Shown piece after piece: positions 4,326 to 46,500 of a stretch of 64,000 nt of DNA. The notes under the pieces are model-generated. The model had not been told where the DNA came from, made no database searches, and saw nothing but the letters and a program-made list of their open reading frames with translations. The number at the start of each line of letters is the position of its first letter. Positions within the stretch are counted from its first letter, which is position 1. The DNA comes from an uncultured bacterium (GTDB lineage: Bacteria; Myxococcota_A; UBA9042; PHBI01). The stretch is from NCBI GenBank assembly GCA_938040325.1, contig CALHXW010000060.1, forward strand, positions 9,080 through 73,079. The letters are read 5' to 3'. The position numbers and the translations under genes were made by a program.

Positions 4326-4820
4326 CGTTCCGGCCGCGCGGCGGTCCAAACGGGGGCGCGAATCGAGCTTCAGCGTCGCCGGAACACGCGGACTGAAAGC
4401 GCTGCGACGTGGCCCGCGGGGCTGACGGATCGAGGGGACGCCTGAACGCGGCTGGAGGCTGCCGATCGCGAGCGATGCAAACGTGAACCCATCGAGGCAC
4501 GGAACGCGGTGAGGGGTGCGGCACGTGCAGAAGGTTTCGGGCAGCAATTCCGCCCATGGAGTCGCTTTCCCGGACCCTGATGGTCCGCCCATCGCCACCC
4601 TCATGCCGGCCGACAGGCCTCGGCTGAGTTCGCGCGACCGCGCCCGCCAGTTGCCAGAATGTGAGTCGTGCCCGTTGTCTCCAACCAGCCGAACCTGCTA
4701 GAGTCTCAGCACTCTCGCAAAATTTGGTTGGGGAACTCGGTGCTGCGCGGCTGGTAGGCCTCGCGCAGCGCCTTCGATGGTCCGATGTCCAGCGTCGTCA
4801 AACGGTGCACTGGGGAACAC

Positions 4821-15821: not shown

Positions 15822-15845
15822 CGTAGCGTTCCGTCTGGATGCTCT

Positions 15846-15885
15846 GAACCCGCTGACGCAACCGTGTCAGCGGGTTCTTTGTGTT
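15846..15885 (+). terminator. rho-independent terminator after the giant adhesin gene
   Basis: A perfect 12-bp stem GAACCCGCTGAC / GTCAGCGGGTTC with an approximately 8-nt loop is followed by TTTGTGTT. It lies 25 nt after the stop at 15821. Confidence 0.55.
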
Positions 15886-15951
15886 CGAGCACCATCGTTG
15901 CATCCGAGTCGCGTTTGAAGACAATGACCCTCGACGACAATGGAGCAACGC

Positions 15952-16692
15952 ATGAACACGCTACTCTACAGCGAGCTTGTGGCCTTCTATCACCTGCTTG
16001 ACCCACTCGAGGACCACGAGGACGAAGCGGAGGCGTTTGGCGGGGTGCTGAGGCAGGCGGTGCCGGGCGCGACGAGCTTACTCGAGCTTGGCGCCGGAGC
16101 CGGTCACGGCGCTCACTACATCAAGCATGTGTTTGAGCAGACGGTGCTCACCGACCTCTCAGACCCAATGCTTGAGCGCTCGAGGATGCTCAACCCAGAC
16201 TGCGAACACATCCTGGGCGACATGCGCTCCATGCGTTTAGACCGCACGTTCGACTGTGTCCTCGTCCACGATGCGATCGCCTACCTGCTCACTGAAGACG
16301 ACTTGCTGGCTTGCATGCAGACCGCGTTTGCCCACTTACGAGTCGGGGGCGCGGCCCTGCTGGTACCAGACTGCACGCAAGAGAGCTTTCGAGAGTGCCA
16401 CGAGGACCATGACGGCGACGACGGTGAGCGCTCGCTCCGCTGCATCTCCTGGAGCACCGACCCGGACCCTGACGACTCCACCCACATCACCGACTTTGCG
16501 TTCTTGCTACGCGAAGCTGGCGAGATCCGGGCCGTCCATGACCGCCACCACTACGGCCTCTTCGCCGTCGACACGTGGAGACGCCTTGCCGAGCGTGCAG
16601 GCTTTGAGGTCGAGACCGTCACACGGCCCCTGACCGAGGACGAGGCAGACTCCGCGTACACCGACATCATGTTTCTGTGCCGCAAGCCATAA
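15952..16692 (+). CDS. class I SAM-dependent methyltransferase
   Basis: Motif I (LLELGAGAGHGAHYI) and post-I acidic residues (VLTDLSD) are present, in a Rossmann-type MTase layout. Start is at the ATG at 15952 (MNTLLY) or the upstream ATG at 15940. Confidence 0.6.
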   Translation: MNTLLYSELVAFYHLLDPLEDHEDEAEAFGGVLRQAVPGATSLLELGAGAGHGAHYIKHVFEQTVLTDLSDPMLERSRMLNPDCEHILGDMRSMRLDRTFDCVLVHDAIAYLLTEDDLLACMQTAFAHLRVGGAALLVPDCTQESFRECHEDHDGDDGERSLRCISWSTDPDPDDSTHITDFAFLLREAGEIRAVHDRHHYGLFAVDTWRRLAERAGFEVETVTRPLTEDEADSAYTDIMFLCRKP

Positions 16693-16825
16693 CGCCAGTG
16701 TTGGATCGGGTTGCACAGGCCCATGACGCTGAACCGAGGCGCGCGGCCGCCGGACTGGATCGGTCAATTCAAGCCCGCGTGACACGCGCGCGAGCGGTAC
16801 CGCCGACGCGGTCAGCCCGCAGCGC

Positions 16826-18349
16826 TCACCGCCAAGTCGGGGGCTTCGGCGCGCCCCAGAGCACGAGACTCCGGTCGGTGCAGGCCTTCGCGAAGGCGTC
16901 GTCGTGGCTGATGAGCAATAGTGCACCTGGGTAGGCACCGAGCGCCATCTCGAGCCGCTCGATCGAGGGCAGATCGAGGTGGTTGGTAGGCTCATCGAGC
17001 GCGAGCAGCCAGACCTGCCGGCTCAGGCCGAGCGCGAGGGCGAGCTTACGCGCCTCACCCGGGCTGGGTGCGTCGGTTCGCAGTAGGACCTCCGGTGCAA
17101 CACCGAGGTCGGCGAGGATGGACAGAACCCTCCCACGCGCGGCCGCGTCGAGCGCCGCTAGCTCCGCCATGAGCCTGTCAATGGCGGCGTCGCTGAGCAC
17201 CTGCGGCACGACCATGAGCTTGTCGGATGGAAGTGTGGCGGCGTTTAGCATCGCACGCATCAGCGTCGTCTTGCCGGCACCGTTGTCACCGGCGAGCCGC
17301 AGGTGTTCGCCACGGCGAAGCGTCAGCTGCACCTCGGTCGCCACGCAGGTGTCGCCCGTGCAGAGACGCTCGGCCACATACCGAAGGAGCACCGGCTTCG
17401 GTGCCGGCTCATAGTCCACAAAGAGCGCCCCGCCGAGCGCCTTTGCCGGCAACGCTGCGTGGGCGCTCGACAGCTCCCGCCGGGCACTATCGACGCGCTG
17501 CCGGACTGCGCTGACCCGTCGAGCAACGCTCGCTTCGGCCTTGAGCACCCGCTGTTGTCGATTGGCGGTTGTTGCCTCTCGATCACCCGCGTTCTTCATG
17601 CGCTTGTGGGCTCTTCGGTTCGCGGTCGTCGCGGCGAGCCGGTCGCGCTGCTCGATGAGCTGCCGCTGCTGTTTGCGTTGGCGTCGCTTGGCTTCCGCGT
17701 AGCGTGTGCGGTCGTGGGCGTCGGTGCGGTCCCAAGCGGCTTTAGCCAGGTCGTAGGGCGCTGGAGTGAGCTGGGCCGCGCCATGGGCGACGCGCAGCGT
17801 GGACGTGCAGACACCGTTGAGCAGCGCGCGGTCGTGAGAGACCAGCAGTCCAAGGCCCCGGTATGCGCGCAGCGCTCCCAAGAGACGCTCGGACTCGTTG
17901 CCGTCAAGGTGGTTGGTCGGCTCGTCGAGCAAGAGGATCTCGGGCTCGCGATAGAGCGCGGCGGCCAGCTGCCAGCGCTTTCGCTCCCCAGGCGAGAGCG
18001 TTTGCCAACGCGCCACGTCGTCGTCGCCGAGCGCGAGACGTCCGCGCAGCCGGCAGGCAGCCGGCGACCAGCTGAGGGAGAGCTCCTTCACGGCCGACGT
18101 GCAAGCGCTCGCGCGCTGCGGACAGAGCTCAACGGCGACATCACCCGAGCGCATCACGGTGCCGGCGGTGGGTCGCAGGTTCCCAGCGACCAGCCGCAAC
18201 AGCGTGGTCTTCCCGTGGCCATTGGGACCAACGATGCCGGTCCAGCCCGTGTGCAGATGGAGGTTCAAGCCGCGGAAGAGCGGGCGGCTCGGCTCATAGT
18301 GGAACGCCACGCCAACAAGGCGCAGCACGAGGTGTGATCGTGGAGACAT
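16826..18349 (-). CDS. ABC-F family ATPase (two tandem ABC domains, no TMD)
   Basis: Two Walker A motifs (GPNGHGKTT; GDNGAGKTT) are present. Two signature/Walker B segments are present (LSPGERKRWQLAAAL…LLLDEPTNHLD; …LLALDEPTNHLD) with an inter-domain linker. The most likely start is the ATG at 18349 (MSPRS…); the ORF track extends it to 18517. Confidence 0.8.
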   Translation of the reverse strand: MSPRSHLVLRLVGVAFHYEPSRPLFRGLNLHLHTGWTGIVGPNGHGKTTLLRLVAGNLRPTAGTVMRSGDVAVELCPQRASACTSAVKELSLSWSPAACRLRGRLALGDDDVARWQTLSPGERKRWQLAAALYREPEILLLDEPTNHLDGNESERLLGALRAYRGLGLLVSHDRALLNGVCTSTLRVAHGAAQLTPAPYDLAKAAWDRTDAHDRTRYAEAKRRQRKQQRQLIEQRDRLAATTANRRAHKRMKNAGDREATTANRQQRVLKAEASVARRVSAVRQRVDSARRELSSAHAALPAKALGGALFVDYEPAPKPVLLRYVAERLCTGDTCVATEVQLTLRRGEHLRLAGDNGAGKTTLMRAMLNAATLPSDKLMVVPQVLSDAAIDRLMAELAALDAAARGRVLSILADLGVAPEVLLRTDAPSPGEARKLALALGLSRQVWLLALDEPTNHLDLPSIERLEMALGAYPGALLLISHDDAFAKACTDRSLVLWGAPKPPTWR

Positions 18350-26441: not shown

Positions 26442-26706
26442 ACATCACCGTACTCGCAGCAGTCCCCATGCTCGTCGCCTCAGCGGGAGCACCTCAATCA
26501 ACGTGGACGAACCGATCGCCGGGTGCAAGGCAGCTCTGGAGCCCGTTCCGATTGGTGCGGAGCTGCTCGCACAACTATTTTTCGACCCTCTCGACCGCCG
26601 GTCAGAAGGCGAGACTCCGTGACGTCGAGGACCTTCCAGCAGCGCGGATGACACTTGCTTGCACGTCGCGATGAGCGGTATCGCATCGGTCCACCAAGGA
26701 ACCGCC

Positions 26707-27300
26707 ATGGCACTGCCCCCCGAAATCGAAGCCCGCGCGTCCACTGGTTGCGAGCTCTGCGGCGCAGCTGGCCCACTGGCCGGTCACGATGTGGGCGCAG
26801 CCGGCGCCCCTAGCGACGACGCAACGAGCCGCATGATCGCTGTCTGCGGAGCCTGCGGACCACAGCTACCCTCAGACGCCACGCTGACGCCAACGAGCTT
26901 GTTTGGCCTCCAGGAGAGCATCTGGAGCGACGTTGCCGCGGTTCAGGTCGCAAGCTTCCGTCTGCTCAAGCGCCTCTCCCAGGAGTCGTGGGCCCGTGAC
27001 TTGCTCGACCAGTGCTACCTCGACCCGTCGGTCGCCGCCTGGGCAGCGGCGGGCGAAGGCGAAGGCGACGCCGGTCCTGACGACGCGCTCGTCTTTGTCG
27101 ACAGCAACGGCACGGTCCTCAGCGCGGGCGACACCGTGACGCTCATCAAAGACCTCAACGTCAAGGGCGCCAACTTCACCGCCAAGCGCGGCACGACGGT
27201 CAAAAACATCCGGCTCACCGACGACCCCGAGCACATCGAAGGTCGCGTGAACAAGGTCAGTATCTACCTCAAGACGTGTTTCCTAAAGAAGCTCTCATGA
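26707..27300 (+). CDS. PhnA-domain protein (YjdC/PhnA family)
   Basis: The C-terminus GDTVTLIKDLNVKGANFTAKRGTTVKNIRLTDDPEHIEGRVNKVSIYLKTCFLKK matches the PhnA C-terminal domain. An N-terminal Cys pair (CELCG…CGAC) resembles the PhnA zinc ribbon. Start is the ATG at 26707 (MALPPE…). Confidence 0.6.
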   Translation: MALPPEIEARASTGCELCGAAGPLAGHDVGAAGAPSDDATSRMIAVCGACGPQLPSDATLTPTSLFGLQESIWSDVAAVQVASFRLLKRLSQESWARDLLDQCYLDPSVAAWAAAGEGEGDAGPDDALVFVDSNGTVLSAGDTVTLIKDLNVKGANFTAKRGTTVKNIRLTDDPEHIEGRVNKVSIYLKTCFLKKLS

Positions 27301-27413
27301 TGGCCGCCGCCGCCGGCTCGCCCTGAGTCTCACGTGCGGATTTGGCGATCCCCACGAAACCATCCAGCTGGTATGTTGGGGGCGGTAGGCTGCCTACTCG
27401 CCCGAGAGGAAAC

Positions 27414-29957
27414 ATGAACTCGCCCGCTACCTGCAACAGACACGTTCGCTCCCTGGCGATAGCGGTGGCTGTCACTGGAATGCTCGCCGGCTGCGAAGTG
27501 CCCGATGAGCCAGGCCCGTGCGACGGCCTCGACGAGGGCGCCGCCTGTGATGACGGCGATCCGTGCACCGACGGGGCGACCTGTTCGGCCGGCGTCTGTG
27601 GTGACGCGGTCCCGATCGACGGCTCAGGCTGCCTGCCGGTCGATGACTGCGCCTCGGCAAGCTGCGGCAACGGGACCTGCGTCGACGGCGACAATAGCTT
27701 CAGCTGCCTCTGCGACGAGGGCTGGACCGGCGACGACTGCGCTGTCGACATCGACGATTGCGCGGACGACCCGTGCGGCTTCGGGCAGTGCAGCGACCAA
27801 GTCGGCGGCTACCTTTGCGCCTGCGACCCAGGCTATGCGGGTGACGACTGCACCATCGACGTCGACGAGTGCGCCGACTCACCATGCGAAAACGGGAGCT
27901 GCGAGGACGACGTGGGGAGCTACGTCTGCACCTGCGATGCTGGCTGGATGGGCGACGACTGCGACGTGGCGGTCGATGGGTGCGCCGGCATCTCATGTGT
28001 CAACGGCACCTGCGTCACCAGCGCTGGCGCCGGCACGTGTGAGTGCGACCAGGGCTGGATGGGCGATGACTGCGGCACCGACATCGACGAGTGCGACGAT
28101 GATCCTGCTGTGTGCGACGTCAACGCGGTCTGCGCCAACACTGCTGGCGGGTTCTTGTGCGACTGCCTGCCGGGCTTCGAGGGGGACGGACAGAGCTGCG
28201 AGGACGTCGACGACTGCGCGGAGAGCCCGTGTGCCAACGGGACCTGCATCGACGCGGTCGACGGGTACACATGCGAGTGCGACGCGGGCTGGACGGGCAG
28301 CAACTGTGATGTCGACGTCGACGAGTGCACGCCCGACCCGTGCGCCTTTGGCCAGTGCAACAACCTCGCGGGCAGCTACCAGTGCACCTGCGACCCAGGC
28401 TGGGAGGGCATCAACTGTGATGTGGACATCGACGAGTGTGGCGCCGATCCGTGTGTGAACGGCGTGTGCGGCGACGCCCAGGGCGCCTACGTCTGCACCT
28501 GTGACCCAGGCTGGTCGGGCGTCGACTGTGACATCAACGTGGACGACTGCGTGGCCGCGGCGTGCGGAAACGGTGTCTGCGTGGATGGCGTCGACGGCTA
28601 CACCTGCAGCTGCAACCCTGGCTGGCAGGGTGCCGCGTGCGACGGCAACATCGACGACTGCGTTGGCAGTAGCTGCCTCAACGGCACGTGCGTCGACGGG
28701 ATCGAGAGCTACAGCTGCAGCTGTGATGCAGGCTGGACCGGCGACACATGCGCGACCAACGCCGACGACTGCGCGGCCAGTCCGTGCGCCAATGGCACAT
28801 GTCTCGACGGGGTCGGCAACTACACCTGCACCTGCGACGCGGGCTGGACCGGCGACAACTGCGATGTGGACATCGACGAGTGCGCCGCTGCGCCGTGTGC
28901 AAACGGAACCTGCATGGACGGCGTCGATAGCTACACCTGTGACTGTCAGCCGGGCTGGACGGGCGATGACTGCGACATCGACGTCGACGACTGCGCGTCT
29001 GCCCCTTGCCAAAACGGCGGGCAGTGCGTCGACCAAGTCAACGCCTACACCTGCATCTGCCCAGACGGCTGGATTGGCGACGACTGCGAGATCGACCGCA
29101 ACGAGTGCGGCCCTGCCCCGTGTGCCGCCGGCTTGTGCATCGACGGGATCAACAGCTACACGTGCGAGTGCCTCGATGGTTGGACCGGCACCGACTGCGA
29201 TGTGGACATCGACGAGTGCGCCAGCGGGACCGCCGGCTGCGACCCGGTCGCGTCGTGCATCAACACCGATGGAAGCTTCACCTGCGTCTGCCCGGCGGGC
29301 TATCACCCAACCCTCGACGGGTGCGTGCGGATCACGGCGTTCGTCTCGGGTCAGTCTTACTCGACGACCGAGCTCGGCGGTGTCGGAGGCGCAGACATGC
29401 GCTGTCAGCAAGAGGCTGCAGCAGCGGACCTCGTTGAGCCGACGAAGTGGCACGCCCTGCTCAGCAACTCTCGACGCTCAGCGCGACAACGGCACCTCAT
29501 CATGTTCCCGCTTGTGATGCCGGACGGAGGCGTGGTCTCACAGACGGAGGCCGGGCTGTGGGACGGCGACATCGACACCGACTTCGACACCAAGCCCAAT
29601 GGACAGGCGGTGTTTGACGGCGTCTGGACGGGCACGCGCGCCGACGGCTCGCGTGTCGTGATGCAGGGCGCCCAGCTGACGCACTGCGAGGACTGGACCG
29701 CGACGTCGGGGGCCACCAACTTGGGGCGCACGTTCGAGTCGAGCTACAAGTGGGCGGACCTCTACCAAGGGTCGACCCCGAGCAATGCCTGCACCAACAG
29801 CAGCCGAATCTACTGCGTTGCAGGCACCCTCTGTCCTGTTGGCGAGGGCGCTGTCGACGGCGCGTGCCAGCCGATTGCAGGGTATTGCGAGAGCACCGGC
29901 GACTGCACGAACGGGGAAGTCTGCGGCGCCAACCACCGCTGCGAGGTGCCGATCTGA
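27414..29957 (+). CDS. lipoprotein with about 16 (mostly calcium-binding) EGF-like domains and a C-terminal endostatin-like domain
   Basis: Start is the ATG at 27414 (GAGAGGA Shine-Dalgarno; …VAVTGMLAGC-EV lipobox). Repeats D[IV]D[ED]C…PC.NG.C.D…Y.C.C..GW.G..C occur about 16 times. The C-terminal 200 aa (…LGGVGGADMRCQQEAAAADL…WHALLSNS…VWTGTRADGSR…HCEDWTATSGATNLGRTFE…RIYCVA) align with human endostatin motifs (GADFQCFQQARAVGL…FRAFLSS…VWHGSDPNGRR…YCETWRTEAPSATGQASSL…IVLC). Confidence 0.8.
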   Translation: MNSPATCNRHVRSLAIAVAVTGMLAGCEVPDEPGPCDGLDEGAACDDGDPCTDGATCSAGVCGDAVPIDGSGCLPVDDCASASCGNGTCVDGDNSFSCLCDEGWTGDDCAVDIDDCADDPCGFGQCSDQVGGYLCACDPGYAGDDCTIDVDECADSPCENGSCEDDVGSYVCTCDAGWMGDDCDVAVDGCAGISCVNGTCVTSAGAGTCECDQGWMGDDCGTDIDECDDDPAVCDVNAVCANTAGGFLCDCLPGFEGDGQSCEDVDDCAESPCANGTCIDAVDGYTCECDAGWTGSNCDVDVDECTPDPCAFGQCNNLAGSYQCTCDPGWEGINCDVDIDECGADPCVNGVCGDAQGAYVCTCDPGWSGVDCDINVDDCVAAACGNGVCVDGVDGYTCSCNPGWQGAACDGNIDDCVGSSCLNGTCVDGIESYSCSCDAGWTGDTCATNADDCAASPCANGTCLDGVGNYTCTCDAGWTGDNCDVDIDECAAAPCANGTCMDGVDSYTCDCQPGWTGDDCDIDVDDCASAPCQNGGQCVDQVNAYTCICPDGWIGDDCEIDRNECGPAPCAAGLCIDGINSYTCECLDGWTGTDCDVDIDECASGTAGCDPVASCINTDGSFTCVCPAGYHPTLDGCVRITAFVSGQSYSTTELGGVGGADMRCQQEAAAADLVEPTKWHALLSNSRRSARQRHLIMFPLVMPDGGVVSQTEAGLWDGDIDTDFDTKPNGQAVFDGVWTGTRADGSRVVMQGAQLTHCEDWTATSGATNLGRTFESSYKWADLYQGSTPSNACTNSSRIYCVAGTLCPVGEGAVDGACQPIAGYCESTGDCTNGEVCGANHRCEVPI

Positions 29958-29976: not shown

Positions 29977-31326
29977 TTAGAGACGTCGCAGCAACATGTG
30001 ACTGACGCGGCTTCGCCCTTTGGAGTCGCGGACGGTGTGAACGCGCTCGCACGCGAACTCGCGCTGCTCGAACCAGGCGCAGAGCGTCTTGACGTCGTAG
30101 CGACGGCTGTAGAGCATCGTGCAGACGCGGGTGCCTTCCTCGATGAGGAGGTCGTGGCAGAAGTTGTAAGACCCAGGCACTCGGGCAGCATCGTCGTCGT
30201 GCCGCACCCAGACGCGCATGTCGACGGAGCTCGGGCGGCGCCCCATCGCGGCTTCCCAACGGCGAAACGGCCCCTGCAACAGCAGACGCCGGTTCGCTTC
30301 CGCTGAGGTCTCGGCGCGCTGGCGGTTGGTCATGGAGTAGAGCGGGTCGCTGGTGATGGGGTCCATCATGGTCGCGACCTCCACCCACACGAGATCGCCA
30401 GGACGCGCCATGCGCCAGAGGCGCTCGCGGACAAAGCTGTCTTCGTCGCGCAGGTTTCCGAAGATGTTGCCGAGCAGGAGAATGAGCCGCAGGCCCCGGT
30501 CGCCGCTCGGGCGTGCCGTGCGCAGCTGCGACAGGAACGCGAGCGGTCCTTCCTCGAAGTCCGCGCAGGTCGGCGTCACAAGACCGCCGCCGCCGCCGAT
30601 CTCGCCGGCTGAGCTGCCGATCGCAGAGCGCCCGGCACTGCCTGCTCGTAGCAGGAGCGGAATCGACACGTCGACGGGCACAAAGGTCAGCCAGTCCAGC
30701 TGAGGCGTGGCGTCGAGCATCGCCCGGAGCACGGCGACTTCCTTGGCGCCATCGCCAACACCGAGCCCGACGAGGTCGAGTCCGCGTGCCCGTCCGCCGC
30801 GCGTTCCGTGACGCAGGGCAGCCGCGATCGGGCCCTTGGTGCCGCCGCGACCTGTGGCGGGGTCGAGCCAGGCACGTGCAGCCGCCAGTGTGCCGCGGAG
30901 CCAGGCACTCTGGTCGTAGCCACTTTGGATGAGGCTTAGCCAGGCGAGAGCGCCTTGGGGCTCGTAGTAGAGGAAGCGGTGGCCGGCATAGTCGAAGGTA
31001 ATGCGGTCACGAAACTGCCGCAGCAGCTCGTCGGGCCCGGCGCCCTCTTCAATGACGAGGGGGTGGAGCTTGGCGCCGCCGCTGCGCGACGCGAACTCGG
31101 CCCGGCGCTGAAGGCCGTCGATCTGGGCGTTGAGGTTGAGCTTGATGGCCTCGAGCGTCTGAGTCTTAAAGCTCGACACCGAGCCGCTGCGCCAGTTCGC
31201 CACATTGACCGGTACCACGTCGGCGAGCTGCGCCACCGCCTTGTCAGAGTCCATGCCGAGCGCTTCGGCAAGGGACAAGAAGAGCTGAACTACCTGACTC
31301 TGTGGGCCACTGGATCGTTTCGCCAT
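29977..31326 (-). CDS. EgtD-like (Methyltransf_33 family) SAM-dependent methyltransferase with N-terminal extension
   Basis: DLVGLGVGDGAKEVAVLRAML…FVPVDVS…RLILLLGNIFGNL…RPGDLVWVEV parallel EgtD TLVELGSGTSEKTRMLL…FVPFDVD…RLFVFLGSTIGNL…RPGDSLLLGT. Start is the ATG at 31326 (MAKRSS…); the ORF track extends it to 31458. Confidence 0.65.
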   Translation of the reverse strand: MAKRSSGPQSQVVQLFLSLAEALGMDSDKAVAQLADVVPVNVANWRSGSVSSFKTQTLEAIKLNLNAQIDGLQRRAEFASRSGGAKLHPLVIEEGAGPDELLRQFRDRITFDYAGHRFLYYEPQGALAWLSLIQSGYDQSAWLRGTLAAARAWLDPATGRGGTKGPIAAALRHGTRGGRARGLDLVGLGVGDGAKEVAVLRAMLDATPQLDWLTFVPVDVSIPLLLRAGSAGRSAIGSSAGEIGGGGGLVTPTCADFEEGPLAFLSQLRTARPSGDRGLRLILLLGNIFGNLRDEDSFVRERLWRMARPGDLVWVEVATMMDPITSDPLYSMTNRQRAETSAEANRRLLLQGPFRRWEAAMGRRPSSVDMRVWVRHDDDAARVPGSYNFCHDLLIEEGTRVCTMLYSRRYDVKTLCAWFEQREFACERVHTVRDSKGRSRVSHMLLRRL

Positions 31327-31508
31327 ATCCAAACCTATGACGGACGCGGCGGAAATCCTACGCCACATCCGGCTTTTTTTTGCACACGACACTTTCTTTG
31401 TCGGCCGGTGGGGATTTTTCGAGCGACGGCCGGTTTTTGCGACCTTGAGTGTGGACACGACGTGGGAGCTTTGGTCGGTCAGTCCGCCAAGATTCGCCGA
31501 GGAACTTC

Positions 31509-32153
31509 ATGACCGTCCGCCCCTTTGCTCCGCTCGTGTCCCCTGTCGCCAGAGTCGCGTGCGCCGCGGTGTTCGCCTCGCTCGTTGCTGCGAGCTGTGC
31601 CGATCCGCTCGACGCAGACGCGCCGCTGATGGAAGGCGAGGAGCCGAACGTTCCGGTCGTCGTGATCGGCGAGGGCGACGAACCAGTGGATGGCTCGGCG
31701 GACTCGGCAGTCTCCTATACGTTCGAGGTGGACCTGCGGGTTGCAGAGCAGCTCTATGTGATCGGCAGGTCACACTATGACGGCGCAGTTGAGGTCATCG
31801 TGCCGAGCGGCGAGGTCGAAGCGTTTGACGCGTGGTCGACCGACCGTGGCGTGGAAGTGACGGGACCAAATGCGAACTTCATTGCCGTCATGCAAGGCGA
31901 CAACGTCGACGCGATCGAGCAGGCGCTGGAGCTCACGATGACCAACGCCGGACCGGTCTGCGCCGCGTGTGGCTTTGACTGCCGCGTGCTCGCCCCCAAT
32001 GAAGTCGGCTGCCAGCCCATGTGTGACCAGTGCGATGCCCAAGCCGTGCTCGGCAACACGACGTCGATCGATGCGCCCGTGGACCCCTACGGACCGCATG
32101 CCCACGACGACGACCCCTACGGCGACTGCAACCCGCGCTTTGACTGCGACTAA
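31509..32153 (+). CDS. hypothetical lipoprotein, Cys-rich C-terminus
   Basis: The N-terminus is MTVRPFAPLVSPVARVACAAVFASLVAAS-C-AD. The C-terminus contains CAACGFDC…CQPMCDQCD…CNPRFDCD. Confidence 0.5.
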   Translation: MTVRPFAPLVSPVARVACAAVFASLVAASCADPLDADAPLMEGEEPNVPVVVIGEGDEPVDGSADSAVSYTFEVDLRVAEQLYVIGRSHYDGAVEVIVPSGEVEAFDAWSTDRGVEVTGPNANFIAVMQGDNVDAIEQALELTMTNAGPVCAACGFDCRVLAPNEVGCQPMCDQCDAQAVLGNTTSIDAPVDPYGPHAHDDDPYGDCNPRFDCD

Positions 32154-32389: not shown

Positions 32390-34129
32390 ATGAGAACACG
32401 ACTTTGGATAGTGGCTGTGGCCGCGCTGGCTATGATGGCCTGTGGCGATGACGACTCGGGCAACGGCGGCGACAGCGGCAACGACTGGAACACGGCGGAC
32501 GCTACCAGCAGCTCGGATGCGGGTGGTACCTCCGACACCCAGCCGCCGCCCAGCGACACCAGCAGCGGCGGCGGCTGGGACACGGCCAGCGCGGACACCG
32601 CTGCAAGCTCTGATGCCGCCAGCTCTGACACCGCGGGCCCCGATCCCGGCACCCCGCCGCCCAACACCCAGGTGAACCTTGGTGGCGCCCAAGACTTCGG
32701 GTTCTTCCGCGCGGTTGTTGAGTCCGGCCAGGTGCCTAACCCCGAGGACATGGACGCCGGCGGCTTCTTCGCTGAGCACCACACCCCGCTGCCCGACCCT
32801 GTTTGTGGCGAAAAGATCTGCCTCCAGGCGATGCTCGGGCAGATGGGCAACCTCATGACGGGCGCCAACTGCACGCTCATTCAGGTGGGCCTGAACTCGA
32901 CCACCGTCGTTGACCCCAACGACCGCCCGCCGCTCAACCTTGTCGTCGTCGTGGATCTGTCCGGCTCGATGAACAACGGCAACAAGATCGACTTCGTCCG
33001 CGACGGGCTTCACAAGCTCGTCAACGAGCTCTCAGACGTAGACCATCTATCGATTGTCACCTATGCGACGACGGTCGACGTTCCCTTCGATATGCAGGCC
33101 GTCAAGAACAACCGCAACGAGCTCCACGACCTGGTCAGCAGCTTGAGCACGGGCGGCTCGACCAACCTCCACGATGGCCTCGAAGAGGGCTTTCAGGTCG
33201 CCATGGACGCCTACGACTCGGGTCGTCAGAACCGCGTCATCTTGCTCTCGGACGGCGTCCCGACGGTCGGCATTACCAACACCGACGAGATCCTTGAGAT
33301 GTCGGCTGGCTACAACTCTGACGGCATCGGCCTGACCACCGTTGGGCTCGGCACGGACTTCAGCGTCGACGTCATGCGCGGCCTGGCTGAGCAAGCCGAT
33401 GGCAACTTCTACTTCCTTGAGAACAGCGCCGCGGTCGACGAGGTCTTCACCGAAGAGCTCGCCTACTTCACCGTGCCCGTCGCGTTCGACGTCCGCTTGG
33501 ACGTCCACGCCGGCAATCACTACACCTTTGGCGCCGCCCACGGCTCGCACCTGTTCAAGACCAACGAGGAGGGCGGCACGCTGAGCGTCCCGAGCGTGTT
33601 CTTGGCCCATCGCCTTGCCCACGACGACGTCACCGACGGTGACGGTCGACGCGGCGGCGGCTCGGCGCTGCTCCTTGAGCTCATGCCGATGGCCGATGAC
33701 GGTAGCAACCTCACGGTCGGCCATGTCGCGACCGTCAGCCTCGAGTTCCGCGAGCCTGGCAGCAACGAGATCGTCACCGAAGAGATCACCATCGACTACC
33801 CGCGCGCGCCGTGGGAGACGCTCGTCACTGGCTTCTTCGACAACGCCATCGTCACGAAGAGCTTCGTGATGCTCAACATCTACGCATCGCTTGAGGAGGC
33901 CTGTCGCCTGCACCACGACGGCCAACCGCTCGAGGCGATGAACCTGCTGCTGCGCGTCATCGCGGCCGCATCCGACTACGAAGACGACGCCAACGACGGC
34001 GAGGGTGACATCGACATCCAGCTCGACATTGAGCTGATGGAGGACCTGGTCGGCGTCATCGAAGACGTGTCCGGAATCAACGAAGAGCCCGAGCCGATCA
34101 TCCCGGAAGATCCGTGGCCTAACGACTAG
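32390..34129 (+). CDS. vWA-domain lipoprotein with acidic Ser/Thr/Asp-rich linker
   Basis: A lipobox is present (LAMMAC-GDDD). The MIDAS motif LNLVVVVDLSGSMNNGNK is followed by …ILLSDGVPT…, a classic von Willebrand A fold signature. Confidence 0.7.
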   Translation: MRTRLWIVAVAALAMMACGDDDSGNGGDSGNDWNTADATSSSDAGGTSDTQPPPSDTSSGGGWDTASADTAASSDAASSDTAGPDPGTPPPNTQVNLGGAQDFGFFRAVVESGQVPNPEDMDAGGFFAEHHTPLPDPVCGEKICLQAMLGQMGNLMTGANCTLIQVGLNSTTVVDPNDRPPLNLVVVVDLSGSMNNGNKIDFVRDGLHKLVNELSDVDHLSIVTYATTVDVPFDMQAVKNNRNELHDLVSSLSTGGSTNLHDGLEEGFQVAMDAYDSGRQNRVILLSDGVPTVGITNTDEILEMSAGYNSDGIGLTTVGLGTDFSVDVMRGLAEQADGNFYFLENSAAVDEVFTEELAYFTVPVAFDVRLDVHAGNHYTFGAAHGSHLFKTNEEGGTLSVPSVFLAHRLAHDDVTDGDGRRGGGSALLLELMPMADDGSNLTVGHVATVSLEFREPGSNEIVTEEITIDYPRAPWETLVTGFFDNAIVTKSFVMLNIYASLEEACRLHHDGQPLEAMNLLLRVIAAASDYEDDANDGEGDIDIQLDIELMEDLVGVIEDVSGINEEPEPIIPEDPWPND

Positions 34130-40071: not shown

Positions 40072-40556
40072 CAGCTTGCGATGGGCCTCGTCGCGTCGGT
40101 GCCTTATCTCCGACATGAGCAGTCTTCAACGTGGGCGCCCGGTTCCGTGCACGCCGCGCGACACGTCTTCTCTGCGCCTCGAGCTGGCAGGTCAGAGTCG
40201 ACCACGAGACGCGAATGCCGCTCGCTTCTGGGGCAAAGCACGGAGACCCGACGTTGCTACAGGTCAGCCTCGACGCCGAACGTCCCGTCGCGAACGCAGA
40301 CGCACAGCCACGGTCGCGAACGTCATCAAAAGCAAGTGCTTACGATCGATCTTTTTGCCGCTGGCGTGGGCAAGCAGCACGAGCGACACCCTTTCATGCG
40401 TCTTACAACGGCCATTCGATGCGTGGTCTCGTCGACCCAGCCGTTGACTGCTTCGTCGCCCTATTCCGGATTGCCAAAGACGGCTCCTGAGCCGTTTTGC
40501 GGACTTCGCGTGATGTGCTACCACCGAGGCCGTCTCAACCAGCACGAGGGAATACC

Positions 40557-43500
40557 ATGGCCTGCATCCGTCACGCCTCACGGCGCGCCTATTGGCTCAG
40601 CACCAGCTTGCTTGCTCTTGGACTGATCGCGACCACCGCGAGCTCAGCGCTCGCCGAAGAGCCCATCACGCTGCGCAGCTCATGGACGCTCAACGGCAAC
40701 TTCACGATCATCACCAACGAGAACAACGCCGATGAGGACGTCGACACCGACGTGACGACCGACGACTCCACCTCGGCAACGCTGGTTGTGCCGGCGACGT
40801 CGACCGTCGTCGCCGCTCGCCTGCACTGGGTCTGTCGGGGTGAAGACGCCATGGGCTTCGGTGCCGCCGACCAGGTGAAGCTCGAGACCCCCGACACCGC
40901 AGGCTACGTGCTTGTGACCAGCGAGAGCGACACCGCATGGGGCTCAGGCGCGGTCCTTCAGCGCGCCTTTCAAGCCGATGTGACAGCCCACGTCCAGTCA
41001 GCCGGTGACGTCACCGTTGCTGACCTTCGCTGCAACGGCGTCGATAACCTCGTCAACTACTGGGCGCTCACGGTGGTCTACGAGGACGCTCTTGAGCCAC
41101 TGCGCAACGTCTCGCTCTTCGACGGTTTCTCATTCTTTTCGTCATCGACGCAGACCTTTGAGCTGACCAACGTGGTCACGCCGCCGTCAACCACTGTGCC
41201 CAGCCGCTTTGGCATCGTGTCGACGTCGGGCCACAACAACCAGGTCGGCAGTGAGACAGTCCTGCTCGAGTGCCCATCTTGCGGCGCGAGCGGCATCGAT
41301 CTGGTTGCGGCGGCTGGCGACATGGCCAACCCCACCGGCAACATCTTCAACAACAACATCCGTGCCTTTGGTGGCGTCCCGCCGAGCAACCCAGCCGATC
41401 CGTCGCTACGCGGCAACGCAACGGTTGGCTACGACATGGACCTCTTCGAAGTCGCTGCCAGCACCCTGCCGGCCGACGAGAGTGAGTTCGACGTGTCGTA
41501 CTCGTCGGGCACCGACAACATCATCATGCACATCTTTGCCGTCAGCGTCGGCGTCAGGCGTCCGGTGCTTGAGGTATCCAAGCTCGCCACCCCAAGCCAA
41601 AGCCCGGCACTCACGGGCGACACCGTCAGCTACGAGATGACCGTCGCCAACAGCACCGACACCCCGGCCGACGCGGTCGTGCTGACGGACACGTTGCCGA
41701 CCGGCATGAGCTGGGACGGCGCGAGCATCGAGGTCTGGAACGCAGCCGACAGCGCGTACCGAGCGGTCACCGCGGCGTCCGGCGACGACGACTGCGAGAT
41801 CTCGGGCACGACCCTCACGTGTTGGCTCGGCCAGGGCGCAGACGGCGCTGCTGCCACCGGCGGGATCCTCGAAGCAGCCGACGGAACGCTGCGGGTTCGC
41901 GCAGTGGCCGTGATCGATGCCGTCGGCAACCCCGTCTGCAATCACGCCTCGGCCTCGTATACGTTTGTGGCTGGCGTCGAGACCCTGACCTTCACCGATG
42001 TCTCCGACGACCCGACCACCCCCACCGGCTTTGACTGCAGCGCCACAGCCGTCTGCGGCGACGGCCTCTTGGACGTGGCCGAGAGCTGCGACGACGCCAA
42101 CAGTACCGACGGCGACGGCTGCTCGGCAAGCTGCGAGCTGGACTCGCTCTTCGCATGTGCGACCACCGGGAGCTCACGCTCCACCGACACGGTCTTCGTC
42201 GCCCACACGTCACTCAGCGGCAACACATCGAAAGAGTCCAAGCTCTTCAGCGTCGCCCAGTCCACCAACGTCATCACGCCGCTCGGCGAGTTCAAGCGCG
42301 GCACGACCGACGTGCTTGTCGACGGACTCGCCGTCAACGTCGGGGGCGACCTCTTCGGCTTCGCCTACAACGTGACCACGGGGATGTCGCAGCTTGTGCG
42401 CATCAACCAAGCCAACGCCACGGTTGTCGACATTGGCAGCCCGCTGCCCTTCCTGGTCAACGGCGCAGGCTTCAACGCGCAAAACCAGCTCTGGGTCTCT
42501 GCGGTCCCGTCCGCCCACGGCGACGTCAACGCGATCACCAGCCAACCGCACAGCATTGCCCAGGTCGACGCTGCCACCGGCGCAGTGCTGAGCGGTCCGA
42601 CGCCGCTGGTCCTCAACGGCACGGCGTTCAGCTCGTCCCCCCGCGGACTCGACATCGCCTTCGACGCCGTCGGCGGCCTGATCATCGGCAACAACACGCT
42701 CATCTACCGGGTCGACAACATCGCCATCCCCGAGATGGTGCTGCTCGACACCATCAGCGGCCAGACGTTCTCCGGTATCAGCCTCGGCCCCGACAGCTGC
42801 CAGGGCAACGGCATCGACCACCAGTCGGCCGACAACTGGCTCGGCTGGAGTCTCGCAGGTGGACCGCTGACCAGCGATGGCGCCTTTGCGGCGGAAAACG
42901 CTGGCTCTGGCGACGCCGCTCGCGCGCCGATCTTCTGCGGAGGTGCCTGCCTCGACCACGACGGCGACGGTGTGCTCGACGCCAACGATCTCGACGACGA
43001 CAACGACGGCATCCTCGACACCGACGAGCTCGGCGCCGACCACTCGGGCGACAGCGACAACGACGGCATCGCCGACTACCGTGACGCCAGCATCGTGAGC
43101 TGCCCCGACGGCAACAGCGACGGTGTCTGCGACAGCCTTCCGGTCGATATTGACTTCGACGGCGACGGCGTGCCGAACCACTTCGACAGCGACAGCGACA
43201 ACGACGGCATCCCCGACCTCATCGAAGCGGGCGGCGTGGATGCCGACAGCGACGAGCTGGTCGACGGCTTCGTTGACGTCAACAACGACGGCTACCACGA
43301 CCCGCTTGTGATGACGCCACTCGAGGTGCCCGACACCGACGGGATGGATCTTGCGGACTTCCTCGACCTCGACGCCGACGGCGACGGCGTCAACGACATC
43401 GTCGAGGCCGGGGGCACCGACAGCGACGGCGACGGCGTGGTCGACATGTTCAATGACGTCGACGGCGACGGCTACCACGAGCCACTGCAGACCGCGCCAT

Positions 43501-46500
43501 GGCCTGTCCCCGACAGCGACGGTGACAGCGATCCCGACTTCCGCGACCTCTGTGGTGACGCCCGCGTGACGACCGGCGAGGCTTGCGATGACGGCAACAT
43601 GAGCACCGGCGACGGCTGTGACGATGCCTGCATGGTCGAGGCGGGATGGGTCTGCGGCGGCGGCTCCGACACGATGCCCTCGGTCTGTGACCCGGTCTGC
43701 GTTGACACGGCGGCGGGCACCGGCACCGATGCTGGCTGCAGCGCTGACCTGCCGATCTGCGACACGAGCGGCATGGTCCATGTCTGCGTCGAGCCCACCG
43801 ACGGCAACTGCCTGCCGAACGGCGACTTCGAAAACCTTGAGCCCGTCTGTGCCCAAGCTCTGCAGAGCACAGGCAACTGGGGCGTCGACTACGCCCACAT
43901 CGCGTCCGATGGCCTGGTGCGCAACGGCAACTACTCGCTGCACTTCGTCGGCACCGGCGTTGGCCAAAACCTCAACTCCGACGGCACATGCACCGGCACG
44001 CAGAGTGTCGGCGGTACGGGCTCCGACATCTACGCGGCGATCGACGCCCCACCCGGCCAGTGCCTGAAGATGACCGCCTACTTCAACCGTGCTGCGGGCA
44101 CGACCGACAGCGACTTCAGCTGCGGCCTGCGTGCGACGGACGGCATGGCGCCGCTGACCACCATCAGCACCTTCGGGACCGTCGTTGGCGGCGAGATCAA
44201 CACCATCACCAGCGACGCCGACCCGGACACCTGGGAGACCTGCAACGCCGAGCTCATCGTGCCCGTCGACGGCAGCCTCGTGCTGGCCTACGTCGCCGCA
44301 CTCGAGAACGTCAACGACGACGCAACCAACGAGTTCGGCGGTCACTACGCCGACGACATCCTGGTCGTCAAAGCCCCCATCAGCGAGTGCGACCACTGCA
44401 ACGACGGCGTGCAGGACGCCGACGAGACAGGCGTCGACTGCGGCGGCAGCTGCGACCCGTGTGTTGACGGCGAGGGCTGCGCCATCGACGCCGACTGCGA
44501 GACCGGCCTCTGCACCGATGGCATCTGCGGCCCCGGCCCAGAGGTATGCGACGACGGCATCGACAACGACGGCGACAGCGACGTGGACTGTGCCGACGTC
44601 GAGGACTGCGCGCTCCACATCAGCTGCCAGGGGGTCAACCCGTCGGCCCAGTGCTCGCCGGCTGGCGGCGTCACCGGCGACCTTGTCGGCGTCCAGGTCG
44701 CTCACGGTCTGACATCGGATGCTCCCGACTCGGACATCCTCACGTTCGCCATTCCACCGGGCGCGACCACAGCGCTCGTGTACGGCTTCGGCGGCACACC
44801 AACCGGAGACGGCGTCATCGATGACGAGGACGTCCACACGTCGTTTGCCACCGTCGACCTCGTCAACGGCACCTACGGCGGCTACTTCTCGGCCACCATC
44901 CGGACCGATGCCGCGAGCACCTCGGCCTACACCTGGGTCGATGAGGCACTCGGCACGCCGAGCATCACGGCGGCAAGCGCGCAAGGTGACACCTCCACCT
45001 TCGACGGACTGACCGTCGACCGCCCCGATGCGATGACCCTGACGGTCCGCGAGGTCAGCGCGATGCAGGACGCCGTCTACCTCGTCGAGTTCTACGACGG
45101 CACCAGCGAGAGCCTCAACCTGACGACGACGCGCTCAACCCGCATCGAGATTGGCGACAACTACGAGAGCTTCGCCATCCCGGCTGGCACCGACTGGATC
45201 ACGATCGATGCCTACAACGTCGACGACTGGCGCGGGCCAAGCTCCGCGGGCGTCAGCTTCCACGAGCCCATCGGCGCCGGCCGCTTTGTCATCGACGTGG
45301 CCAACGCCACTGCCACGGGCTTCGCCGGCCAAAACTACGGCTCTGGCGATGCCTATACCTGCAAGTATGGCTTCACGGGCTACGACGTCTCCCAGCCGAC
45401 GACCGCGACGGATGGCGGCGTCCTGGCCTCAGCAGCGATCATCGACGGCGACACGTCGCTGACCGGGACCGCAGGCTGCCCATCACCGAGCCTGTGGCTC
45501 GACGGCAACGTGCTGCACTACCGAAAGGCGCCCGCCGCGTGGGCGATCGACGCACGCCAGAGTGTCATCGTCGACTTCTGGACCAAGACGGGGGCGCCGA
45601 CGGCGGCCAAGGCCATCGGCTCATCGACGGCCTACAACACGAGCACCGGCGTGTTCGAACCAGGGCTCATTTCGCGCCCCATGACCCTGGCGGTCCCTGG
45701 CGGCACCGACTTCTCCCAGGTCCGTTGGTCCATCAACACGCCGATCAACCAGCCCGACAAGGAGCTCAACGAGAACTTCGGCTTCGGCGCAAACCTCGTC
45801 GACTTCAACAAGGGCGAGGTCAGCTGGCGCGGCGTCTACAACAACGGCGCGGTGATGGCGGCGCAGGTCCTCATGCTGGGCACCGTGCCCTTCGGCGTTG
45901 CTGCCGTGCCGGACCCGAGCGGCTGGCCGGACCGGTTCCCGAGCCACACCGTCACCACGTTCGACCCGGTCGCCTCCGAGCTGACGTTCACCTTCAACTC
46001 GCAGCCCTATGAGCAGACGGTCATGCACATGCAGCACTTCGCGCGTGGCCTCGACTTCAGCATCGGGGGCGGCAACGTCGCGACGACACCGACGGCGACC
46101 TGCGAGATGGGCATCACGACCATCGCGCTCAACATCTGCAACACGGGCGCCTCACGCTTCAACGCCCAGCTCCCCGTGACGCTCTACGACGCCGACCCGA
46201 CGGCCGGCGCGGCCAACGTCGTCAGCACGCAGCTCGTCCAGCTCGATGTGGACGGTGGCTTCTGTGCCTCGCCGACGGTGACGCTCAGCGCAGCCGAGTC
46301 AGGGCTCGCCGACAACCTCTACATCGTGGTTCACGACAACGGGAGCGTCGCAGCGACGGGCACGCCCTTTGCGCTCTCCGCGCTGGCGATGCAGCCGACG
46401 GCCACCAACATCAACGAGTGTGACTTCTCCGACAACCTCTACGGCGCGCTCCAGGACCCGTGCGCCCCGACCTGCCGCGACACGGCGGTGGGTGCCGCCG

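Follow-up and report, generated by a model that had tools for sequence, protein, structure and literature searches.

DUF1554 (PF07588) is the domain that makes up the Len proteins, endostatin-like lipoproteins of Leptospira that have been known since 2007 (PMC2063517, PMC2387172). An endostatin-like fold was predicted for LenA-F (PMC2063517, PMC2387172), which were linked both to DUF1554 and to PDB 1koe (PMC2387172), and in Leptospira these lipoproteins attach to laminin, fibronectin and factor H of the host (PMC2063517). The Len proteins are short, with one or two such domains, and are reported to be absent from non-pathogenic Leptospira. In animals, endostatin (PF06482; PDB 1koe, 1bnl, 1dy0-2) is the C-terminal domain of the NC1 region in two collagens, XVIII and XV, where it lies C-terminal to the triple helix, a trimerisation domain and a protease-sensitive hinge. 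Long arrays of calcium-binding EGF (cbEGF) domains are found in Notch, Crumbs and fibropellin, and in fibrillin and LTBP, where cEGF-type units are interspersed with TB/8-Cys domains. EGF units are paired with C-type-lectin-like domains in the animal selectins and in lectican G3, and C-type-lectin-like heads are borne by the bacterial proteins intimin and invasin. Here we analyse a gene from an uncultured bacterium of the Myxococcota_A, located in a stretch of 64,000 nucleotides (the window), whose product joins an endostatin-fold domain to an EGF array behind a predicted lipid anchor.

The open reading frame, at 27414..29957 on the positive strand, encodes 847 aa, and the ATG at 27414 and the stop codon ending at 29957 agree exactly with the boundaries given by a first-pass annotation of the window. 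That annotation had also called the product a lipoprotein. Taking as the hallmark of a lipoprotein a signal peptide that ends in the lipobox [LVI][ASTVI][GAS]C, we found R9 and R12 in the n-region followed by a hydrophobic core and then AVTGMLAG-C27; with its lipobox LAGC, the product is a predicted bacterial lipoprotein, as had been claimed. The Cys residues of the N-terminal 6-Cys module are not spaced as in an EGF domain, and a Pfam scan returned no family covering residues 36-73. At the other end of the protein is a small Cys-knot tail that has no Pfam match and whose first loop, CPxGxxxxxGxC, is common to the nearest bacterial relatives, P0004 and P0009. The mature protein is extremely acidic (pI about 4) and disulfide-rich (up to 53 possible disulfides). 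The coordinates of these features are collected in Table 1.

Table 1 Features of the gene and its product, in window coordinates.
Feature	Position	Strand	Basis or detail
Shine-Dalgarno-like GAGAGGA, purine-rich	27404..27410	+	3-4 nt upstream of the ATG; direct sequence reading
Predicted signal peptide with lipobox, MNSPATCNRHVRSLAIAVAVTGMLAG followed by C (L-A-G-C, Cys27)	27414..27494	+	Sequence reading
N-terminal 6-Cys module, residues 36-73	27519..27632	+	Cys 36, 45, 51, 57, 62, 73
Fifteen EGF domains in tandem, residues 75-637	27636..29324	+	Pfam and per-module Cys table
Predicted endostatin-fold domain, DUF1554/Len family, residues 639-805	29328..29828	+	Cys at 664, 758, 793, 801
C-terminal 6-Cys tail, residues 807-847	29832..29954	+	Sequence; separate 41 aa

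A six-frame search with EGF and endostatin-like profiles gave matches solely in the positive-strand frame of the gene itself, and revealed no second copy of either module elsewhere in the window. Overlapping open reading frames in other frames and on the other strand (e.g. 27993..29453 on the minus strand) were taken to be high-GC shadows of the real gene. We found no sigma-70-like promoter between 26400 and 30200, nor any promoter or terminator of note. The upstream gene encodes PhnA/YjdM and the downstream, convergent gene a Methyltransf_33-like protein, a context that gives no functional clue. One neighbour encodes a 3678-aa protein full of MopE-type motifs, and a sigma-54 activator is present in the window; both features, like the Myxococcota relative described below, hint at a member of Myxococcota, so that the term myxobacterial used in the first-pass annotation is plausible.

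When the whole protein was scanned against Pfam, only EGF-type families passed the cut-off, namely hEGF (E=2.7e-70, 231 bits, 15 stretches), EGF (E=7e-67, 15 stretches) and EGF_CA (E=1.9e-49, 166 bits, 12 stretches). Assignment by Cys register likewise gave 15 modules. We judged these against the calcium-binding EGF families (PF07645 EGF_CA and PF12661 hEGF), which are defined by the six-Cys register, the motif D/N-x-D/N-E/Q-C and the Asx/aromatic consensus. An N-terminal calcium-site motif (D/N-x-D/N-E/D-C) is present in 13 of the 15 modules in our per-module table, and the C3-C4 consensus C-x-D/N-x4-F/Y-x-C-x-C in 14, so that the array conforms to the calcium-binding EGF consensus and is predicted to bind calcium; EGF1 and EGF4, which do not have the full calcium motif, could serve as hinges in the rod. 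The long calcium-type array reported by the first-pass annotation is therefore real, but its estimate of about 16 cbEGF domains has to be lowered to 15, the supposed 16th being a non-EGF 6-Cys module. The term fibrillin-like is not apt either, because the Pfam scan turned up no TB/8-Cys domain and 13 of the 15 units share their hEGF spacing (C5-x8-C6) with Notch, Crumbs and fibropellin. What the array does share with those of fibrillin and LTBP is a long run of calcium-binding EGFs, for which a rod is expected, together with the longer, cEGF-type C5-C6 spacing of EGF5 and EGF15. It is more closely akin to the arrays of Notch, Crumbs and fibropellin, which have the same tandem 37-residue units, D-x-D/N-E-C calcium sites, C5-C6 spacing and C3-C4 consensus, but, unlike those proteins, the product studied here is bacterial and predicted to be lipid-anchored, and is devoid of transmembrane or signalling parts. 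Within the array the EGF units are 37-74% identical to one another, and at 28493-29018 the DNA repeats in tandem with a period of 111 bp (4.7 copies).

Profile comparisons and a modelled structure indicate that the C-terminal domain is a true but distant homologue of endostatin, with a similarity far beyond chance. A single-sequence phmmer search of PDB sequences with this domain found nothing, and its score against Pfam Endostatin (PF06482) is 17.5-18.4 bits, under the cut-off of 29.4, results that would favour convergence or chance as the source of the resemblance, with the domain being some other bacterial fold that happens to contain Cys. However, a profile built from 44 sequences matches endostatins over nearly their full length (E=7e-18 to 1.6e-13), hhalign pairs the domain with human endostatin at 98.2% probability, and 32 of the 44 aligned relatives match the Pfam Endostatin model themselves (best 1.9e-10). 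The four Cys residues of the domain, C664, C758, C793 and C801, coincide in position, in both hhalign and HMMER alignments, with endostatin C33, C135, C165 and C173, the expected disulfides being C664-C801 and C758-C793, and exactly four Cys are present in 207 of 266 bacterial domains. These results refute convergence or chance as an explanation, the probability of which we consider negligible. Foldseek placed endostatins in all of the top five ranks for the model of the domain (E=9e-9 to 4e-7, TM 0.64-0.69), and the predicted fold is that of endostatin. The motif-by-motif pairing with endostatin proposed in the first-pass annotation, and the retention of the Cys positions, held for every pair listed, each being aligned identically by hhalign and HMMER; the shared core motifs are GAD.xC.Q.A, (F/W)xA(F/L)LS, VW(H/T)G(S/T), C(E)xW and (I/L)(V/Y)(L)C(I/V). 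The extent assigned to the domain, the last roughly 200 aa, was slightly generous because the final 41 aa form the separate tail, leaving about 165 aa.

Homology to endostatin does not make the protein an endostatin in the functional sense. The alignment produced by hhalign begins at about residue 18 of endostatin, and the domain itself starts with RITAFVSGQSY, in which there is no His. Since the alignment starts after that point, the domain lacks the N-terminal His residues that ligate zinc in endostatin structures. The basic character of the presumed heparin-binding sites is not conserved either, because the domain is acidic (pI 5.05, compared with 9.3 for endostatin; 13 K+R, 18 D+E). The collagen, trimerisation and hinge segments of the animal proteins are also missing here: a Pfam scan found none of them before the domain, and the preceding 640 residues are accounted for by the signal peptide, the Cys-rich module and the 15 EGFs.

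On profile evidence, the C-terminal domain belongs instead to the large and already named bacterial family DUF1554/Len. Taken alone, it passes the DUF1554 cut-off of 27.5 bits both as a 209-aa piece (28.1 bits) and as a 172-aa piece (30.6 bits), a marginal match to the Leptospira-derived model, confined to its N-terminal third (positions 5-44 of 136); DUF1554 does not appear among the Pfam results for the full-length, 847-aa sequence. The same model is matched by 40 of the 44 aligned relatives. A word-indexed homologue search with the domain returned nothing, and with the profile it returned six proteins only, four of which have a precomputed PF07588 assignment; the relatives surfaced in an exhaustive phmmer search, which detected 1977 representative clusters (50% identity) at E<=1e-3, of which 175 reached E<=1e-10. 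Multi-copy proteins occur in the family, whose median pI is 4.7. P0004 and P0009, both short bacterial lipoproteins, have the same C-terminal tail and are 40-43% identical to the domain. The statement that the fold is characteristic of metazoan basement-membrane collagens is thus contradicted by its abundance in bacteria. The other outcome that had been envisaged, a widespread bacterial-only fold with convergent motifs, is correct as to the fold being widespread in bacteria but not as to convergence, the domains being homologous. Compared with LenA-F, likewise bacterial lipoproteins with the same type of domain, the protein has in addition the 15-EGF stalk and two Cys-rich modules, and it comes from a high-GC, probably free-living bacterium.

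The first-pass annotation had suggested that the gene might be a product of lateral transfer, which we assessed as recent acquisition of a metazoan extracellular matrix (ECM) gene, whole or as endostatin-like and EGF parts, mimicking the matrix of a host or prey. The best full-length database matches of the protein are indeed metazoan EGF proteins (fibropellin, Notch, Crumbs and Jagged, at 40-48% identity), and the weak match to Pfam Endostatin also points in this direction. However, EGF arrays of similar identity (43-52%) are present in clearly bacterial contigs, and the units of the array are as similar to one another, at about 40-50%, as they are to metazoan units, so that identity of this order is a sign of the EGF consensus and not of recent common descent. 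The endostatin-fold domain is only 18-26% identical to endostatins, far below its identity to the two bacterial lipoproteins, and in our tree it nests inside the bacterial radiation, while 44 of 50 bootstrap replicates set endostatins apart as a clade of their own. The composition of the gene is also native, both in GC and in GC3 (0.84, compared with 0.79-0.86 in neighbouring genes), and the absence of every collagen-derived segment argues in the same direction. These results largely refute a recent animal donor for the endostatin-fold part, and for the gene we regard such a transfer as very improbable. The bacterial hEGF modules, for their part, may have an ancient eukaryote-to-bacterium origin.

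The combination of EGF array and endostatin-fold domain was not found elsewhere in our scans of genome and metagenome contigs or in homologue searches. The scan of genome-representative contigs yielded a sole relative, a non-orthologous protein from a Myxococcota MAG with TSP3-like repeats and cbEGFs, and that of metagenome contigs yielded single-EGF matches only. As the DUF1554/Len family, which includes the end domain, is large and was named before, it is only the combination of a lipid anchor, 15 EGFs and an endostatin-fold head that is unusual, the modules themselves being known. The selectins, lectican G3, intimin and invasin provide an analogy and not a case of shared membership, as the structural similarity is marginal and both the domain order and the families differ.

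We propose that the gene encodes an exported, lipid-anchored EGF-stalk protein with a DUF1554/Len endostatin-fold head, likely a surface adhesin or matrix organiser, a reading to which we assign a probability of roughly 65%. The protein would be exported by Sec and then lipidated at Cys27. Calcium at the EGF-EGF junctions would stiffen the array into a rod, by analogy with fibrillin or Notch roughly 40 nm long at about 2.5-3 nm per cbEGF, and the rod would hold the endostatin-fold domain off the membrane as a ligand-binding head. The rod model is borrowed from eukaryotic cbEGF pairs. Most likely the head itself binds proteins or glycans and has a targeting role, because elsewhere in bacteria the module adjoins secreted proteases (astacin with FN3, trypsin with dockerin) and RCC1 and DUF4215 domains, and because the Leptospira version binds laminin, fibronectin and factor H. 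Ligand data for the family are limited to these leptospiral members.

A narrower possibility is that the protein organises matrix and does not act as an adhesin for foreign surfaces, its head binding the cell's own, possibly sulfated, exopolysaccharide (EPS) and thereby tethering EPS to the envelope. Such a role would echo the binding of heparan sulfate by endostatin, and P0009 (40% identity, same tail) lies, in two contigs, inside an exopolysaccharide cluster that encodes a Glycos_transf_4 enzyme, two to three sulfotransferases, a Wzx-type flippase and a Wzz/GNVR kinase. This context is absent, however, at three other relatives examined and at the gene described here, and we rejected it as a recurrent trait of the family; moreover, the acidity of the domain and of the family speaks against a polyanion being bound by simple electrostatics. 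We therefore consider this narrower role unlikely, and keep to the broader reading given above. The sulfotransferase-rich cluster around P0009 does hint that a polysaccharide ligand of the head could be sulfated.

Overall, the novelty of the protein lies in how known modules are combined, not in the type of system. In routine Pfam annotation of the whole protein, this architecture would go down simply as an EGF protein. With about 2000 clusters at 50% identity, the endostatin fold emerges as an extracellular module that is common in bacteria, and not as an animal invention. More speculatively, this lineage might build, out of the parts also used by animals, an ECM-like, calcium-stiffened EGF rod with an endostatin-fold head that perhaps binds a matrix or prey-surface polysaccharide (possibly sulfated), and the endostatin of animal collagens XV and XVIII might be an offshoot of the far larger and more varied bacterial family that arose by ancient bacterium-to-metazoan transfer, not the reverse; we see only a slim chance that this whole picture is right. 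If a ligand is found, it could inform both the action of the Len adhesins in Leptospira and the source of the animal endostatin domain.

The reading frame opens at an ATG (27414) preceded by GAGAGGA, and the first-pass annotation had placed both of its ends exactly; an alternative upstream start, TTG 27342, would merely put 24 extra residues ahead of a signal peptide that is already canonical. A predicted lipobox, LAGC, closes the N-terminal stretch MNSPATCNRHVRSLAIAVAVTGMLAG-C and agrees with the lipoprotein assignment made previously.

Features of the window, with the segments of the EGF/endostatin-fold protein (window coordinates unless given as residues)
Feature	Position	Strand	Remarks
CotH kinase-family protein	2388-4325	+	PF08757, E=8.9e-39
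Giant ORF, 3678 aa	4785-15821	+	MopE-type 'putative metal-binding motif' repeats, PF11617, whole-protein E=4.7e-59
PhnA/YjdM-domain gene	26659-27300	+	upstream of EGF gene, same strand
EGF/endostatin-fold gene	27414-29957	+	847 aa, 108 Cys
Signal peptide			1 Cys
Lipobox	residue 27		1 Cys (Cys27)
N-terminal module	residues 36-73		6 Cys, without EGF spacing
15 EGF modules	residues 75-637		90 Cys
DNA repeat	28493-29018		111-bp period, 4.7 copies
C-terminal domain	residues 639-805		4 Cys: 664, 758, 793, 801
Tail			41 residues, 6 Cys
Methyltransf_33-like gene	29977-31458		downstream, convergent
234-aa ORF	31449-32153	+	several Cys near C-terminus, no Pfam match
VWA (von Willebrand factor A-domain) protein	32390-34129	+	2.4 kb downstream of EGF gene
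2933-aa ORF	40497-49298	+	no Pfam family at E<=1e-5
Sigma-54 activator			within window

Pfam models for hEGF (2.7e-70, 15 stretches), EGF (7e-67, 15 stretches) and EGF_CA (1.9e-49, 12 stretches), the last being the family initially proposed, all match the array. The motif D/N-x-D/N-E/D-C occurs in 13/15 units, C-x-D/N-x4-F/Y-x-C-x-C in 14/15, and the C5-x8-C6 spacing of hEGF (Notch type) in 13/15, with EGF5 and EGF15 having longer, cEGF-type spacing. The Cys register, calcium motif and C5-C6 spacing thus indicate 15 EGFs, about 13 of them Ca-binding by motif, so that the long array described at first pass stands with its count of about 16 cbEGFs lowered, and is Notch-like rather than fibrillin-like. 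The DNA repeat has its 111-bp period because an EGF unit is 37 residues long; the gene's own units share 37-74% pairwise identity. Among full-length matches, metazoan proteins rank highest (fibropellin, Notch, Crumbs and Jagged; 40-48% identity), and similar arrays are also found on clearly bacterial contigs, where they adjoin GH77 and 5'-3' exonuclease genes (L003), adjoin a TAT-signal molybdopterin oxidoreductase and histidine kinases (L005), or occur with thrombospondin-type-3-like repeats (L001). The very large L001 protein (5500-8200 of Myxococcota MAG contig JBMYRH010000033.1) consists of Asp-rich thrombospondin type-3-like repeats (DxDxDGxxDxxDxC), then ten Ca-binding EGFs, then Ig-like repeated segments, a further set of animal-ECM-like modules in Myxococcota. 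Separately, a JGI metagenome contig (L004, Ga0493796_05921464, 2974-18058) carries at least six successive same-strand genes, all with EGF matches, including a product of >3800 aa with Filamin hints; this contig may be of bacterial or viral origin, or represent a eukaryotic gene in fragments.

Searched alone, the last 209 aa exceed the Pfam cut-off for DUF1554 (PF07588; 28.1 bits against 27.5) and fall below that for Endostatin (PF06482; 17.5 bits against 29.4), the family first suggested. A single-sequence search of PDB sequences with this segment gave no match, and hmmscan of the whole 847-aa protein reports neither family even at E<=1; routine annotation would therefore overlook the domain. 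When 1.84 billion cluster representatives were searched exhaustively with phmmer, 1977 relatives emerged at E<=1e-3 (175 at E<=1e-10, 6 at E<=1e-30), some with up to 7-8 domain copies. A profile built from the window domain and 43 of these related domains matched, nearly full length, the endostatins of mouse and human collagen XVIII and mouse collagen XV (E=6.9e-18 to 1.6e-13), and no significant match beyond them. Alignment to human endostatin with hhalign (98.2% probability, 18% identity) reproduced every motif pair noted at first pass, and C664, C758, C793 and C801 align with endostatin C33, C135, C165 and C173, in keeping with the conserved Cys positions claimed. The sequence-level observation was correct. 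Of the 44 domains in the alignment, 40 are hit by DUF1554 and 32 by the Endostatin model as well (best 1.9e-10), so the bacterial family bridges both Pfam entries.

The fold had been taken as metazoan-specific and the gene as a possible lateral transfer; the size of the DUF1554 family lends no support to the former, and the following argues against the latter. Closest to the window domain are two short lipoproteins of metagenomic bacteria, P0004 (43% identity) and P0009 (40%), which share with the window protein a Cys loop after the domain. In a neighbour-joining tree the window domain clusters with these two, and the three endostatins form a separate long-branched clade (44/50 bootstrap replicates). 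Over trimmed columns the window domain is 42% identical to the closest bacterial domain and 21-26% to endostatins (means: bacterial-bacterial 32%, bacterial-metazoan 24%), and the gene's composition is native (GC 0.668 and GC3 0.84, with neighbouring genes' GC3 at 0.79-0.86 and window GC at 65%). Tree placement, identities and composition together make recent acquisition from an animal very unlikely. Judged from its sequence, the domain lacks endostatin's functional hallmarks: the N-terminal segment bearing the zinc ligands has no counterpart in it, and its pI is acidic at 5.05 (endostatin 9.30; family median 4.7). Bacterial endostatin-like lipoproteins are already a known kind, since the Len lipoproteins of Leptospira carry DUF1554: LenA-F were named from PHYRE models resembling endostatin (Stevenson et al. 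2007; PMC2063517), bind laminin, fibronectin and factor H (PMC2063517), and have been tied explicitly to DUF1554 and PDB 1koe (PMC2387172).

The combination with EGFs seems to be uncommon: no EGF occurs in the 150 best of 1977 endostatin-fold representatives, PF07588 and PF06482 are absent from the 120 best EGF-array matches, and genome and metagenome scans found no orthologue. Partners of the module elsewhere (astacin + FN3, trypsin + dockerin, RCC1 repeats, DUF4215 repeats) are those usual for an extracellular module that moves between proteins and serves in binding or targeting, and it ends <=15 residues from the C-terminus in 101/266 near-full-length occurrences. The window protein is a new domain architecture inside a known, very large bacterial family. 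No operon logic is apparent from the neighbours, and no promoter-like site was found at the locus. The MopE-type protein also contains a HYR domain (PF02494), otherwise chiefly an animal ECM module. Taken with the HYR and EGF/endostatin-fold genes, the VWA gene adds to a local accumulation of ECM-type modules. The MopE-type protein, the sigma-54 activator, the 65% GC and the match in a Myxococcota MAG are consistent with an origin in Myxococcota.

The protein carries a predicted export and lipidation signal, most of its EGFs have the Ca-site consensus, and its head is a DUF1554 domain of endostatin fold. As in the cbEGF pairs of fibrillin or Notch, Ca2+ would stiffen the array, here into a rod of ~40 nm that holds the head away from the membrane. 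The Len proteins and partner domains suggest that the head would bind a protein or glycan ligand, which would make the protein an adhesin or an organiser of matrix. A single hint of a polysaccharide ligand comes from P0009 (6001-6969 on L010; 5632-6600 on L011), whose gene lies within an EPS cluster encoding a priming glycosyltransferase (Glycos_transf_4), 2-3 sulfotransferases, a Polysacc_synt flippase and a Wzz/GNVR kinase, which may link the fold to sulfated polysaccharide. This context, however, does not recur in three other relatives examined, and the acidic surface disfavours polyanion binding of a simple kind. Because the domain clears the DUF1554 threshold when scanned by itself while the whole-protein scan is silent, EGF-rich proteins may conceal similar C-terminal domains in routine annotation.
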